64,000 nt of DNA from Octopus sinensis (lineage: Eukaryota). Made by a program: the position numbers and the translations under genes. Positions 2,200 to 52,912 of this stretch are shown here, piece after piece. The first letter of the stretch is position 1. Each line of letters begins with the position of its first letter. The stretch lies in the NCBI RefSeq assembly GCF_006345805.1, contig NC_043002.1, positions 101,370,001-101,434,000 of the forward strand, given 5' to 3'. Below the pieces are notes generated by a model. That model had not been told where the DNA came from. It did not search any database and saw only the letters and a list, made by a program, of their open reading frames with translations.

Positions 2200-2452
2200 T
2201 AAAATATTGATTTTTTAGATTGGAAGTCCACCTGAAGATTGTCGATCAAGACAAGAAACGATTGTAGTGGCGGTTTTTTTGACTATTTTATAAATTTTAT
2301 GTATTGATTAAGTCTTTCCTTGTTTGTTTTGCAAAATAGTGGTTTTGTCTCTAATAATATTTTATAATATTTTACTATAAAATTGGATTTAATCCTAAAT
2401 CTGATTTTTTTTTCCCTGTAAATTTGGATTATTCCCTAATATTTATTATTAT
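2200..2452 (+). mobile_element. Penelope-like element terminal repeat (pLTR) fragment
   Basis: A hammerhead is followed by an AT-rich tail ending in (TA)n. The tail 2290-2450 recurs inverted at ~31470-31625. Confidence 0.65.
2228..2270 (+). ncRNA. Minimal type I hammerhead ribozyme
   Basis: ccac-CTGAAGA-ttgtc(gatcaa)gacaa-GAAA-cgattg-TA-gtgg. Intact core, 4-bp stem I, 5-bp stem II, GUA cleavage triplet. Confidence 0.85.
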
Positions 2453-3360
2453 ATATATAATATATATATATATATATATATATTAGATATATAATATATA
2501 TATATATATATATATATATATGTATATATATTTATATATAGAATCTATTTATCTGTCAATATAAATATGTATTACACAGCGATGCACATATATTTGTGTG
2601 TATGTATATGCATGTGTATAGAATGTCTGAAATATGCACACGTCTGGTGTGCATGCGATACACACATACACACACACAGCAGAGCATGGAGTATATTTTA
2701 AAAATGCCTAATTAATGTATTCGCTTGAAGCAATAACTCAATTTATTCCAGAATCGGAATAGAGGAGAATTAACCCTATATATAAATATAGCCGGAGGAG
2801 TTTTTTCCTATTTGTCAGGTATTTCATGCGATATGAGTTAGATAGTTAAAAGGCTTCGTGACTTGGTTGTTTACAGCTATTTGATAATTTCTTTGCAGCT
2901 TTCGTCAGGGAGATTGAAACAGTGAACAAGATTGCGCGAAAGTGAGAAAGTGAAAGAGCGATATGTGTGTGTGTTTGAGAAAGATAAAGAGAGACGGATC
3001 GATAAAATGTAGATAGATGGATAGTTGAAATGATACATAGATAGAGTGATAGAGTTGGGGGATAAAGTGGAACGTAAATCTGAAGAGAGGGAATGCATGG
3101 TGATAATAAGCGTTGGTGACTGTGTTCGTAGTGATGGTGGGGTATATAAGATATGATAAATTCTGAAACGGAATGAAAGGGAGAGTAAGTGAAAGAGGGA
3201 TGGAGAGTAAATGGGTGAAAGTGGGAGGGAGGGACAGTTGGAGATTGAAAGAGAAGGCGTATTAAAGAGAGATTAGCGATAGTAAAACAGGAGAGAAACA
3301 GAAATAAGAAGTAACAAAAAGATGGGAGAAAGTAAAACAACGGAGGGGAAGTGTATCAGT

Positions 3361-3978
3361 ATCTATCTATCCATCTGTCTTTTTATCTATCTATCCATCT
3401 ATCTCTTTATCTATCTATCTATCTATCTATCTATCTATCTATCTATCTATCTATCTATCTATCTATCTATCTATCTATCTATCTATCTCTTAGAGACTAA
3501 CAGCTTATTCTCTCTATTTCAACCTGTCACTCTCACGCTCAATCTGTGTTTTTTGTTTAACCAGCACCTCCTCCTCCGTCTCCTTCTCCTCCTCCTCCTC
3601 CTCCTAACATCCCCCTCCTCCCCTTCTCCGCCCCTCCTCACATCCTCCTCCTCTCTTTCTAAATGCATCCATCATTTGGGACACACATCGCTACTCTTCG
3701 TACTGTTGCCGTATATCATTCCTAGAAGTGTTATGAAAATCATCATCACCCTAACTACACCTCCACCACCACCAGTATTACACTCCCACCACCGCAACTG
3801 CTACCGCAGCCACCACCACCACCACCACCGACACCACCACCACCGTCACCACCACTACTGCCGCCACAACCAGCACTACCACCACTACCACCGTCTCACC
3901 ACCACCACCACCACCATCACCACCACCACCATCACCACCGCCGCCGCCGCCGCCGAAACCACCACCACCACCACCAGT
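3361..3978. repeat. (ATCT)n, (CCT)n and (CAC)n microsatellite cluster
   Basis: Directly visible; explains ORF 3322..4014. Confidence 0.95.
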
Positions 3979-5189
3979 ATCATTTCTGAAGGTATACAAT
4001 ACATGTATTTATAAAAATCATTATTTCTGCTATGGAAATATAGAATCGATTTTGTGTTTGATTTTTTTTTATACATATCAGAAGAGGAATTCTAATCGAA
4101 CGCCGATCAAATTAATTATAATCATATTTATACACTAATTTGGCAAGAAATATTTCGCATCAGGGAATAGTGGAGGCCGAAATCTAGGCTAAAGATCTGA
4201 CTTCCGGGAATTTTCCAGACTAAAGATGGAGGCTAAAGATCTCACATCCGGGAATTGGAATCGAGGTTGAATGCTTATAATTAAGAAAAAAATTGCTCTA
4301 TTAATATTTATTTTGAGTTTTTACTTCTGTATTATTTTTAATAAATATTGGTGGAAGATTATTTATGTGTAGAATTAACAAATATAACAGTCGCAACAGC
4401 AACAATAACAACGTAAAATTCAACACAGAAATATTTGCCAATATCTGTGAAGCCCCTTAAGGGAAGGAAAAATCAAAATAAATATTAGGTTTGTTTATTT
4501 TTATCTTTACCGATTGAAGAGCTCACAGTATTCGGGTCGATTATGAGAGTGAATGCAAGAAGAGAGCAGAACATAGTGTTGTTGCGAGGTTAAAGCGTAG
4601 CTAAGAGTGTCGGAGAAATCTCTGCATTAGAAATACATGATAAGAGTACACAGCTAGCCTAGAGATATATTTATATATGGGAATGAGACACCTGAAGACA
4701 ATTGGGGAAAAGACCGATCGAATGAAGTGCAAAATATGTGTGAGTGTGTTTGTGTGTGCGTGTGTGAGCGTGTGTGTGTGTGTGTATGCATGCGTGCGTG
4801 TGTCTGTATGTGCTTGTGTATGTGAGCTTTTGTGTTCGGCGGTGTATGTGAGAATGTATACGCGTGAAGATTGCACGTGAAAGGATTGGAGGATGAACCG
4901 AATTTGAAATATGTGTAAAACAAAAGTGTGTCTATAATTATGCAATGCATATGAATATATGTATTCGATCCGTGTCCTTTTGAGCGTGTGTGCATTTGCA
5001 AATGCGAGGGAGCGTGTGTGACTGTGTGTATATAAGAGTAAAGCCCTTGAAAATAACTGCAAAGCGATTCAGCCGAAATTATGTTTAAAAGAACTACGCG
5101 TGTGTGTGTGTGTGTGTGTGTGTGTGTGTGTGTGTGTGCATTTCTGCGCTTCTTTCTGAGTGCGTGTGTATGTATGTACGAAGGTATGT

Positions 5190-5297
5190 GTGTATGTATG
5201 TCATTGTTCAGTTTTATTTCAAGATTTCTTACCAACAGAGAAAGAGTCGGTTTCTAACCTAGATCCAAGGCACCTTCGTTGGAATTTCAACATCAAC
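5190..5297 (+). repeat. Short interspersed repeat (second copy inverted at ~36010-36115)
   Basis: gtcattgttcagttttatttcaagatttct...gtttctaacctagat matches the reverse complement of 36010-36115. Confidence 0.75.
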
Positions 5298-50325: not shown

Positions 50326-50770
50326 GGATCTTTTCGGTTTGAACGGCAGTTTTTAACATAATTTCTAGGTAACTAAAAAATTCTAATCTTCGTATACTGG
50401 GAGAATGTGTTTATAAAACATCTTTTTCTCTTGGCTTTATTGAGAAAATTCTATGGTTTGTAAGATATTTCTTGTCTTTTTTCAATAATTTCTGCAATTT
50501 CAACCAATCAATGACGTCCATTGAGGTAAAAAAACACATTTTGTGCCGTATGAATATATCCCTCGTTTAAGAAACAGATTGGGTTTATTTACATTTGTAA
50601 AGAAAAAAGATACCCTTCCCCCCACCCCTAACCCTAACCCTAACTAACCCTAACTAAACCTAACCCTAAAACAGATTGAAATGCAATAGATCGATACTAG
50701 GGTCATAATTATGGGTGACAATTTCATATGACACCGCTAGAAAAAACTGCCGTTCAAACCGAAAAGATCC
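50326..50770. mobile_element. Non-autonomous DNA transposon (MITE), ~29-bp TIRs, 8-bp TSD, internal telomere-like repeats
   Basis: TIR ggatcttttcggtttgaacggcagttttt / aaaaactgccgttcaaaccgaaaagatcc. TSD caaaccac at 50318-50325 and 50771-50778. (CCCTAA)-like repeats at 50625-50668. Confidence 0.95.
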
Positions 50771-51457
50771 CAAACCACGTTAGAGAGAATGCGGCTACAA
50801 TTTACTGTTTAAGACAACGTGAGCAAAGAGGGAGAATAGACGTGAGAGCAATGGTTGGAATGATAGGGTATGTGGACGGAAGCTGTGAAAATATGACGAA
50901 AACAAGAGGAGGCTGTGAGGATGAGAGAGAGAAGAGAGTAATGAAAGGGCGATAATTTTGAAGAGAGTAATAAGAGAGAGGGACAGTGATGAAAGCAATA
51001 TATTTTATTGCTGTGAGTGAGGAAGTGTAAAAGGTGGATGGCAAGAAGGAGAGAAACGGATTTCAAAAATGCGTTACCTAGGTTGGGGCAGAGAGAAAGG
51101 ATGATGGTAGGGTGTATAGTTTACGAACAGATTTATTGCTATCCCTCATACGCCTGTGTCTTCATGGGAAAGAGGAAGAGAAAGAGAGAGAAGAGAGAGA
51201 GAGAGAGAGAGAAAGAGAAGAGAGAGAGAGAGAGAGAGAGAGAGAGAAAGTGAGAAGCATATGATTAAGATTAACTGCCATACCTCATTACAAAGTGGGC
51301 GTGGTGCAGAGAAATCGGGGAAGAGAACTTCATTGTTCTTTCAAGATTATCGGGATACTTCGGATATGAAAGAATCTTTTTCTGTTCTTTGTCAAAAAGG
51401 GATTCTGGTAGCATGAAAAAGAGACAGCATGACAGGATGAACAGAATCATTATCAGT

Positions 51458-51675
51458 AGGGCGGCGAGCTGGCAGAATCGTTAAGACACCGGGCAAAATA
51501 CTTGGCGGTATTTCTTCTGTCTTTACGTTCTAATTTCAAATTCTGCCGAGGTCAACTTTGCCTTTCATTCTTTCGGGGTCGATAATTTAAGTACCAGTTT
51601 CGTACTGCGGTCGTTCTAATCGACTGGCCTCCTCCCCCAAAATTTCAAACCTTGTGCCTTGGGTAGAAAAGATTA
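51458..51675 (+). mobile_element. SINE family A (alternative tail)
   Basis: gggcggcgagctggcagaatcgtta head plus the conserved core. Confidence 0.9.
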
Positions 51676-52837
51676 TCAGAAACGAAAGGATGAGAAATAA
51701 ATGACAGCGAGTGTTAAGTGATTCAGAGAGAAAGAAAGAAAGAAAGAGAGAGAGAGAGAGAGAGAGAGTGTACGTGTGTGTGTGTGTGTAATGGAGACGA
51801 GGAGGTGTTGACAGAGAAGCGGAAGTGTATCCCGAAGGACGAGAAACAACAGATAGAATGTTACAGGTAAAATGTTAAGCAGGAGAGTATACCCAGCACA
51901 GACATATTCCACCCAGAATGGCTTGGATTGTTCAACTATAAGCAAAAGGGGACGACCACAAATCCGAGTAAAACCATATACAAATATGAGTAATACCATT
52001 TACAAATATGTCCTGATTCTGAAGCAAGCCTTTTATGCACGTATATTTTAAGGGAAGTGAGAAGGGGGTGAAAGAGAGAGAGAGATAGACAAAAAGAAAG
52101 AGAGAGAGAGAGGGAGAGGGAGAGAAATTGACGAAGTGGGGAGAGCAAGAGAAGACGAAAAGAGGAATTGGTGGGCATGGAAGTCGAGTCGTGATCAAGA
52201 CAATTAAATAAACAAATAACAAAATTTAAGTTCATACCTTTAATGGTTAAATTCTTTCCAACTGCTATACTTCTATTCTTTTACTTCTTTCATTCATTAG
52301 ACTGCGGCCGTGCTGGGGCAACGCCTTGAAATATTTTAGCCGAGTGAATCGATCCAAGTACTTACTGCCTTTTATCGATGTCTTTTCCCGGATATATCCT
52401 CCTCCTCCTCCTCCTCCTCATCATCATCATCATATATATATATATATAGCCGGTGTTTTTAAAGCGATGAATAGCTTTGTGGAAACCATGGTACGCTTTG
52501 TTTTCTGACTTTATAATCATCTCATAATAATTACTTTTATGACTCGTATTACTACCTCAGTCAATCTAAATGTATATAATTGTCGTTACCTGTCATAAAA
52601 AGCCTCTTTTAATTCACAATGTGCATTTTCGTTGATTTTTCATATTTTACCCTTACATCTCCACGTATATTTCATATTTTCTTTTTGTAACATATTTCTA
52701 CTATATATATATATATATATATAATATATATATATATATATATATTTATAAATATATATTGTAGAACGTTATACATGCTGGATTTCGATTGAGCATTCTG
52801 TATCTAGTTCTGGAAATTGTATTTCGTAAACGACAAA

Positions 52838-52912
52838 CTATGCTGACGATCTTGCAGATGTTTACGTATCCATATACGTAAATATTAACAAGTGAAACTA
52901 ATTAGTACATAG
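52838..52912 (+). ncRNA. Type I hammerhead ribozyme with long stem II
   Basis: ctatg-CTGACGA-tcttg..atgtttacgtat(ccat)atacgtaaatat..caagt-GAAA-ctaattag-TA-catag; stem I extends through aaacga/tcgttt. Confidence 0.9.

Follow-up and report, generated by a model that had tools for sequence, protein, structure and literature searches.

We analysed a stretch of 64,000 nucleotides from Octopus sinensis (contig NC_043002.1 of assembly GCF_006345805.1, positions 101,370,001 to 101,434,000 of the forward strand), referred to here as the window. Five motifs with the layout of type I hammerhead ribozymes lie within it, and each was found in a copy of a repeat (Table 1). The motifs, and the repeat families that carry them, are numbered 1 to 5 by position along the window. 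Our analysis indicates that each motif sits in a solitary copy of a separate high-copy family without an open reading frame (ORF). These families are probably non-autonomous, retrozyme-like retroelements that depend on Penelope-like elements for the enzymes that copy them; their ribozymes are predicted to act mostly as dimers and to cut the RNA of the element itself.

Table 1. Hammerhead motifs and repeat copies in the window. Positions count from the first nucleotide of the window; boxes are given in RNA letters and parts in DNA letters.
Feature	Positions	Strand	Boxes in order	Parts or remarks
Site 1 motif	2228..2270	+	CCAC / CUGAAGA / helix II / GAAA / CGAUUG / UA / GUGG	stem I CCAC 2228-2231 / GTGG 2267-2270; core CTGAAGA 2232-2238; GAAA 2255-2258; UA 2265-2266
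Site 2 motif	29252..29296	+	CAUGCG / UUGACGA / helix II GAGG-CAAUUA-CCUU / GAAA / CUAUAG / UC / CGUAUG	stem I CATGCG 29252-29257 / CGTATG 29291-29296; core TTGACGA 29258-29264; GAAA 29279-29282; UC 29289-29290
Site 3 motif	31197..31285	-	GUGCAG / CUGAGGA / long helix II / GAAA / CGAUCG / UA / CUGCAU	stem I GTGCAG 31285-31280 / CTGCAT 31202-31197; core CTGAGGA 31279-31273; GAAA 31214-31211; UA 31204-31203
Site 4 motif, decayed	46970..47028	+	UCUCCG / CUGAUGA / broken helix II / GAAA / UCGUUCGA / UC / CAGAGA	stem I TCTCCG 46970-46975 / CAGAGA 47023-47028; core CTGATGA 46976-46982; GAAA 47009-47012; UC 47021-47022
Site 5 motif	52838..52912	+	CUAUG / CUGACGA / long helix II / GAAA / CUAAUUAG / UA / CAUAG	stem I CTATG 52838-52842 / CATAG 52908-52912; core CTGACGA 52843-52849; GAAA 52894-52897; UA 52906-52907
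Family 1 element copy	777..2540	+		homology to 11 other loci; non-coding; ends in (AT)n 2439-2540
Family 2 copy	29162..29467	+		single 5'-truncated unit, 306 bp of the 359-bp unit, without the first ~52 nt
Family 3 copy	31083..31313	-		5'-truncated, then (TA)n 31082-31049
Inverted last 38 nt of family 3 element	31323..31360	+		92% identity over 38 nt; abuts the truncated 5' end
Head-to-head inverted pair of 5'-truncated family 1 tails, without hammerhead	31472..31773	- and +		31618-31472 (-) and 31693-31773 (+); 89% and 85% identity to 2294-2440
Family 4 fragment	46929..47040	+		older family, 81-91% identity to relatives; conserved flanks of other copies lost or diverged here
Family 5 copy	52748..53150	+		5'-truncated against (TA)n; ends at (CA)n

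Hammerhead motifs in the window and in the genome

The boxes of a type I hammerhead can be read in the correct order at all five sites. The core C3-U4-G5-A6-N7-G8-A9 is present at sites 1, 3, 4, and 5; site 2 deviates (UUGACGA), with a U at C3. Both GAAA (G12-A13-A14 plus A15.1) and U16.1-H17 (UA or UC) are found at 5/5 sites. The initial annotation had placed the motifs correctly, together with predicted cuts after 2266, 29290, 31203 (minus strand), 47022, and 52907. Its label for site 3, "31198(-)", needs an adjustment: a motif is indeed there, spanning 31285-31197, but the minus-strand core lies at 31279-31273, farther upstream than the label implies.

At sites 1, 2, 3, and 5, helix I has 4 to 7 pairs, and helix II has 3 to 5 pairs adjoining the core. 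Helix II of site 1 is a 5-bp stem (UUGUC-GAUCAA-GACAA) with U-A at 10.1-11.1. The stretch between the boxes that forms helix II is 57 nt long at site 3 and 44 nt long at site 5, and at both sites its first position is U.U, followed by UGC-GCA at site 3 and by CUUG-CAAG and an inner 13-bp hairpin at site 5. The U after A9 could be read here as an extra A9/10.1 nucleotide; there is a matching extra U before G12, so a U.U mismatch reads equally well. Site 4 and its relatives are alone in having G...C at 10.1-11.1. In the window copy of this site, stem I is interrupted by a C.A mismatch and helix II is broken; the folding prediction did not give it the hammerhead fold. Several relatives in family 4 do fold; their stem I is UCUCUG/CAGAGA, their helix II is rich in G-C, and their cleavage site reads UA. 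All five motifs had been described as foldable, which holds for 4/5, the exception being the window copy of site 4; among the five, the core of site 2 is non-canonical.

A palindromic or near-palindromic stem III had likewise been described for every site. Three of the helix III sequences, CTATAG, CGATCG, and CTAATTAG, are perfect palindromes, and CGATTG of site 1 is self-complementary when a G.U pair is used. In TCGTTCGA of site 4, 3/4 positions pair. The joint chance of this self-complementarity at sites 1, 2, 3, and 5 is ~1e-7. Since the descriptor with which we counted motifs never asked for helix III pairing, helix III gives the motifs independent support. Dimers of sites 1 and 5 were predicted to fold, at minimum energy, into double hammerheads in which the two molecules pair through a helix III of 8 bp at site 1 (-23.4 versus 2 x -7.5 kcal/mol) and of 10 bp at site 5 (-48.0 versus 2 x -19.0 kcal/mol). 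The dimers thus gain 8.4 and 10 kcal/mol, respectively, over two monomers.

For the chance tests, we used a strict descriptor that consisted of CTGANGA, a helix II adjoining the core, GAAA, U-H within 14 nt, and a helix I adjoining the core, with one mismatch allowed per stem and no requirement on helix III pairing. It matched three times in the window (sites 1, 3, and 5), against a mean of 0.18 in 100 dinucleotide shuffles, none of which reached three. The initial annotation had held that a motif frequency no higher than in dinucleotide-shuffled sequence would speak against it, and the observed frequency is well above that level. Because real DNA is richer in hairpins than shuffled DNA, we added decoys in which the boxes were scrambled and searched for in the real window (720 decoys, mean 0.17); three hits were reached by 3/720, the true motif included. 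Relaxing the first box to [CT]TGANGA added site 2 for a total of four sites, with a shuffle mean of 0.68 and 1/100 shuffles reaching four. The window copy of site 4 passed none of the descriptors. Taken together, the five motifs exceed chance.

We then ran the strict descriptor on 40 arbitrary 10-kb stretches of the genome (400 kb) and obtained 10 motifs, compared to a decoy mean of 1.14 and a decoy maximum of 5 (0/150 decoys reached 10). By extrapolation from these 400 kb, there are roughly 20 motifs per Mb above the decoy level. With 3 motifs per 64 kb, the window has about twice the sampled average and is not special. Several of the sampled motifs again have a palindromic helix III, and one is a family 1 relative with ACAATTGT in place of ACGATTGT. 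This relative is from locus L226 (G000:C18:20000001-20010000), where family 1 hammerhead relatives with an altered helix II loop lie at 1474-1508 on the plus strand and in a further copy on the minus strand. Helix III of these relatives has ACATTGT or ACAATTGT for ACGATTGT, and ACAATTGT turns the G.U of the dimer helix into A-U. At another sampled locus, L223 (G000:C15:20000001-20010000), identical hammerhead-like motifs occur at 9231-9294 and 9777-9840, on the same strand and 546 bp apart; the pair looks like another tandem retrozyme-like family.

We also searched the genome with the Rfam model Hammerhead_1. Among 74 candidates scored, 7 were canonical matches at or above the gathering score, with 34-48 bits. 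They have a compact 5-bp GACCC/GGGTC helix II and a near-palindromic helix III, ACATGTGT. Two matches (L087 and L088, at G000:C16:25146363-25146408 and 25146794-25146839, minus strand) are identical, score 34.3 bits, and are 431 bp apart, as a tandem retrozyme unit would give.

Repeat families that carry the motifs

Each site was used as a 141-nt query against the animal's own 2.72-Gb genome, with 40 candidates scored per site. The first look gave 859, 1493, 1655, 374, and 1067 candidate copies for sites 1 to 5, respectively. The best copies were 94-100% identical to the query, or 81-91% in the case of site 4. The GC content of families 1 to 5 is 0.23, 0.45, 0.30, 0.36, and 0.29. When the five elements were compared with each other by blastn, no match was significant (best E 0.005, in AT-rich runs), in agreement with the initial description of the five as unrelated in sequence.

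To describe the state of the motif in each family, we used the closest relatives of the window copies, which are not a random sample. In family 1, the motif is identical in 12/13 sampled copies, and the remaining copy has a 1-nt insertion before GAAA. Family 2 has TTGACGA in 15/16 copies. The core of family 3 is intact in 12/12 copies, where only N7 varies (G in 6, A in 5, and U in 1). For family 4, the core is intact in 12/16 copies, as is GAAA (12/16). The core of family 5 is intact in 13/14 copies (N7 is C in 7 and U in 6), with one copy truncated inside helix II.

Family 1 is at least 1.8 kb long, and its 5' starts range from 777 to 2179 across 11 other loci. We found no convincing coding frame in it, since its open frames are translated low-complexity repeats, and the 8 kb upstream of the window copy contain no ORF of 120 aa or more. 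Two tandem repeat blocks with 261- to 268-bp periods (455-967 and 1142-1644; 1.9 copies each, 81-83% matches) lie in the element. The family also has a short subfamily of head-to-head pairs around a ~43-nt palindromic spacer, with the hammerhead ~35 nt from the 5' end of the copy (e.g., G000:C3:7338323/7338366, C7:28907552/28907594, and C8:90821914/90821955); of 55 copies, 16 part from the sequence of the window copy at -46 to -48.

Family 2 is built of 359-bp units. At locus L038, two full units stand head to tail and are followed by the last ~20 nt of a third, and further loci have arrays of 523-732 bp. Directly upstream of the window copy is a minisatellite of about nine 45-bp units (28778-29182), with a repeated peptide in all three frames. 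Partial tandems are also found in family 5, and the copies that we saw in families 1, 3, and 4 were for the most part single or inverted.

The window copy of family 3 has 38-nt inverted ends, and we considered whether the family could be a miniature inverted-repeat transposable element (MITE). This was rejected, as other copies are without that left end. Because other family 3 copies lack it there, the piece at 31323-31360 is a 5'-truncated inverted partner and not a terminal inverted repeat. Other copies of families 3 and 5 run on upstream with conserved sequence that is missing from the window copies.

Copies within a family keep the same 3' end and differ at the 5' end. At many loci, a further copy, itself 5'-truncated, faces the first head to head; such inverted partners, like the variation in 5' ends, were seen in every family that we examined. 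A (TA)n run is found on the 5' or the 3' flank; because it occurs on either side, it is a target rather than a tail. We saw no poly(A) tail in the 3' flanks of families 2, 3, and 5, and an A-rich run follows family 4 copies. No long terminal repeats (LTRs) were found in the aligned loci; primer binding sites and polypurine tracts received no dedicated search. According to PMC8557442, Penelope-like elements typically show partial tandems, 5'-truncated partners in inverted orientation, and a bias towards microsatellites, with (TA)n as the preferred target, and the retroelement anatomy of our families fits that pattern. The proposal that several distinct ribozyme-type repeat families are dense in this genome is therefore upheld by the unrelated repeats, by their retroelement-like anatomy, and by the excess of motifs in the 400-kb sample.

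The window copies themselves are dead-end insertions. Four are 5'-truncated or fragmentary, one is decayed, and all lack a same-strand partner. We found no ORF adjacent to them, nor the pseudo-LTR setting of an element that encodes reverse transcriptase and a GIY-YIG endonuclease. A nearby hammerhead of the same family exists for family 1 only, ~2.7 kb upstream and on the opposite strand. Because every window copy is solitary, the dimer that the short helix III needs has no partner in cis.

Copy starts at the predicted cleavage sites

If an RNA that has been cut is copied from a fixed 3' site to the end of the template, then the copy begins at the first nucleotide past the cut. We looked for this footprint with the 110 nt after each predicted cut as the query, pooled 30 loci per family with the first set, and mapped the starts on a natural long copy. 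The design of the query censors starts downstream of the cut, and it cannot produce a peak at the cut relative to upstream positions.

In family 3, 10/58 copies, representing 6 independent loci, start at -3..+1 of the predicted cut, where ~1 would be expected from the density of starts in the preceding 120 nt (P = 2e-7 by copies and 3e-4 by the 6 independent loci). Five of these six loci are head-to-head pairs; in every pair, one or both members start at CTGCATTACC, on the nucleotide just past the predicted cut. We suggest that this pile-up, which is new here, may be an indirect footprint of cutting in vivo. For family 2, 4/42 arrays start at 0..+3 (P 0.005), and two arrays of 177-178 nt extend exactly from the cut site to the 3' end. 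Eight of the 55 family 1 copies start between -6 and +18 (2 at -6..-2 and 6 at +8..+18; P 0.001). The signal is weaker in family 2 than in family 3 and is absent in family 5.

These starts raise the possibility, which we put forward tentatively and think rather doubtful, that hammerheads rejected by standard models cut in living cells, with U.U for G10.1-C11.1 and a 57-nt helix II in family 3 and even with U at C3 in family 2. Such cutting would be recorded by copies that start at the exact predicted nucleotide. If true, the known sequence space of active natural hammerheads would widen, and copy starts would provide a purely genomic assay for ribozyme activity. In our view, the footprint of family 3 is the one result worth following up: its 5' ends would serve as a cheap genome-wide test of whether weak dimer-type hammerheads act in vivo, a question that the literature leaves open. 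The variant cores are bench candidates for hammerhead tolerance.

Origin of the families and relation to known systems

Candidate endonuclease domains of the Penelope type are plentiful in the genome. There are at least 5029 candidates for the GIY-YIG domain (PF01541), 147/150 of those scored match, and some lie in open frames of 600-883 aa. We propose that two hammerheads would pair via the palindromic helix III in a transcript of the element, in a read-through or tandem transcript, or between two transcripts, and that the double hammerhead would then cleave 3' of U-H, at a modest rate of success. A Penelope-type enzyme acting in trans would use a nicked (TA)n target and prime at the fixed, internal 3' site. 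Reverse transcription would continue either to the cut 5' end, so that the copy starts at the cleavage site, or past a ribozyme left uncut, so that the copy is longer; the inverted partners would arise by template switching. Cutting at both ends of a unit could allow it to be circularised, as described for retrozymes in PMC7229834.

A number of observations weigh against this account. The G10.1-C11.1 pair is absent at 4/5 sites, where it is replaced by U-A (site 1), G.U (site 2), or U.U (sites 3 and 5), and family 2 has a U at the catalytic C3. Rfam at the gathering score gave no hammerhead match (0 hits) in the whole window. With Rfam at E<=10, the five 3.1-kb loci (15.7 kb) returned 88 rows, none of which was a hammerhead, and none was among the best 150 of 251 rows in an E-value scan of the window. 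The 5' ends of family 1 fall mostly 8-18 nt downstream of the predicted site and not at it. In family 2, 5' ends also cluster elsewhere, with 4 arrays starting at the 5' edge of the motif and 2 starting within the core, and because of these, stalling of reverse transcriptase at the structure is an alternative to cleavage, above all for families 1 and 2. None of 52 family 5 copies starts within 3 nt of the predicted site (1 starts at -4 and 3 at -13). Contigs from runs X1, X2, X9, and X13, which are presumed to be RNA, were aligned to 29100-31400 and read across the predicted cuts in both family 2 and family 3. There are thus molecules that were not cut, or that are DNA; contigs of this kind cannot show RNA ends, strand, or circles. 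We also compared the five elements by blastn with 20 GIY-YIG loci, taken from the 147 matches among at least 5029 candidates, and found only family 1 with L070 and family 3 with L064, both likely insertions; a coding partner may exist at other loci. A relaxed core search for a hammerhead downstream of the endonuclease frame at the same 20 loci gave two regex matches, of which the better one (L065) had stem I out of register and was dropped.

The lack of an Rfam hammerhead match even at E<=10, the non-canonical 10.1-11.1 position at four sites, the U3 of family 2, and a site 4 that is unfolded and fails every descriptor would all be expected if the motifs were chance look-alikes in ordinary repeats, with no ribozyme ancestry or function, and if five were seen because repeats are plentiful and the search was by eye. 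We consider this quite improbable, since the observed count was reached by 0/100 shuffles and 3/720 decoys and the same excess appeared in 400 kb of other sequence with 0/150 decoys. Helix III, moreover, is self-complementary at 4/5 sites and in 3/4 positions at site 4 without having been asked for, the sole core position that varies in family 3 is the free one, N7, and the 5' ends of that family pile up at the predicted site. A different possibility is that the hammerheads are real by descent, with the families moved by other machinery, such as that of a short interspersed element (SINE) dependent on a long interspersed element (LINE) or of a DNA-transposon MITE, and the ribozyme playing no part in their spread. 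In its favour are the missing sequence link to the 20 sampled Penelope-like loci, the 38-nt inverted repeat that brackets the family 3 window copy, and the LINE reverse-transcriptase fragments in the window, and hammerheads are reported as dispensable for Penelope insertion (PMC8557442 and PMC11167929). However, only the window copy has the 38-nt inverted piece; the others continue on the 5' side with a different, conserved sequence. Families 2, 3, and 5 are without a poly(A) tail, the partial tandems, inverted truncated partners, and (TA)n targets match the Penelope-like pattern in PMC8557442, and copies of families 2 and 3 start at the predicted cut. We therefore regard movement by other machinery as unlikely.

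The initial annotation had further suggested that the inserted ribozymes could cleave host intronic transcripts. Probable RNA contigs do cover families 2 and 3, so copies at some locus are probably transcribed or co-transcribed, and the cores at sites 1, 3, and 5 are intact. Against this, non-LTR retrozymes are described as excluded from vertebrate introns (bioRxiv 10.64898/2026.07.22.740005), and the window copies stand alone; judging by PMC4209133 and PMC6765202, their helix III is too short for a monomer to be active. The nearest family 1 partner is on the other strand, the predicted sites of families 2 and 3 are spanned by contigs, and the window ORFs of 110 aa or more yielded no host exon. 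Cleavage of host introns at the five places thus found no support, and we hold it to be extremely improbable.

The reading that we retain, of retrozyme-like elements copied by Penelope-like enzymes, adds five families to an already known kind and involves no new principle. Minimal type I hammerheads with a short helix III have reportedly been treated for Penelope-like elements by Lunse, Weinberg and Breaker in RNA Biol. The motifs were caught by unaided reading of the raw sequence and missed by Rfam; therefore, scans with curated models would undercount hammerheads in this genome.

Most metazoan type I hammerheads are described by Cervera and de la Pena (2014; PMC4209133) as having a 1- to 2-bp helix III with a small palindromic loop and as acting as dimers. 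According to the same source, minimal variants occur in the repeats of Penelope-like elements, are massive in metazoan genomes, and cleave poorly in vitro. Our motifs resemble these in being type I, in their CUGANGA, GAAA, and UH boxes, and in a very short palindromic helix III that allows a dimer. Also alike are the wide sequence variety within one genome, the repeats with tandem and inverted insertions, and the low scores with standard models. They differ in that a candidate pseudo-LTR location in a coding element was not found at the window copies, and in having U-A, G.U, or U.U at four sites for G10.1-C11.1, a pair that PMC4209133 describes as highly conserved. Further differences are the very long helix II, with 57 nt between the boxes at site 3 and 44 nt at site 5, and the U at C3 in family 2. 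As for how cleavage relates to insertion, PMC11167929 describes a Penelope-like protein that initiates reverse transcription internally; insertion in vitro did not require cleavage, and in Anolis no reads were found to end at the cut.

Metazoan non-LTR retrozymes are presented by Cervera and de la Pena (2020; PMC7229834) as low-GC tandem units of 150-450 bp with a type I hammerhead each, expressed as circular RNA, and the retrozyme searches described there were screened for tertiary contacts between helices I and II. Li, Clavereau and Pollet (2026; bioRxiv 10.64898/2026.07.22.740005) derive non-LTR retrozymes from Penelope pseudo-LTRs. With what these two sources describe, our families share non-coding units of a few hundred bp, one type I hammerhead, low GC, the tandem 359-bp unit of family 2 (at least two units at some loci), and the co-occurrence of Penelope-like elements. 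Unlike those retrozymes, the sampled copies are mostly dispersed single or partial units and inverted pairs rather than long tandem arrays. The Hammerhead_1 (RF00163) matches in the same genome have the same boxes, the same topology, and a short near-palindromic helix III. They differ from the window motifs in their 5-bp G-C-rich helix II with G10.1-C11.1 and in their bit scores, as the window motifs miss even E<=10.

A looser parallel exists with the hepatitis delta virus (HDV)-like ribozymes, which the review PMC6765202 describes as processing the 5' ends of R2 and L1Tc. In both cases, a self-cleaving RNA near the 5' part of an element would free the template from an upstream transcript, and copies of families 2 and 3 that start at the predicted cut fit ribozyme-processed 5' ends. 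The ribozyme class is different, and most copies here keep sequence upstream of the ribozyme, for which reason cutting would be partial or optional.

The ORFs of the window are translations of low-complexity sequence or pieces of transposons. Coding content of the window was searched with Pfam on nine ORFs. Six gave nothing, and three had matches to transposon fragments under the cutoffs or a Pif1-type helicase domain. The fragment matches are to zf-RVT at 25159-25836 on the plus strand (E 5e-5, below the Pfam cutoff) and to RVT_1 at 46188-46535 on the minus strand (E 1.7e-4, below cutoff). A Helitron-like Pif1-type helicase 2B domain is encoded at 42020-42613 on the plus strand (E 1.6e-10).

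In the E-value scan of the window mentioned above, microsatellite matches to microRNA models dominate. Microsatellites of the (TATG)n and (TA)n types (e.g., 5303-5375, 10215-11153, 16939-17467, 26843-28059, and 58390-58857) produced dozens of sub-threshold matches to mir-297, mir-466, and mir-3149, which are low-complexity artefacts far under the gathering scores. Finally, positions 30024-30100 have summed word depths of 33,000-111,000 in the contigs of the four probable RNA runs, far over the rest of 29100-31400, with many loose ends on both sides; this is presumably a very abundant transcribed short repeat.

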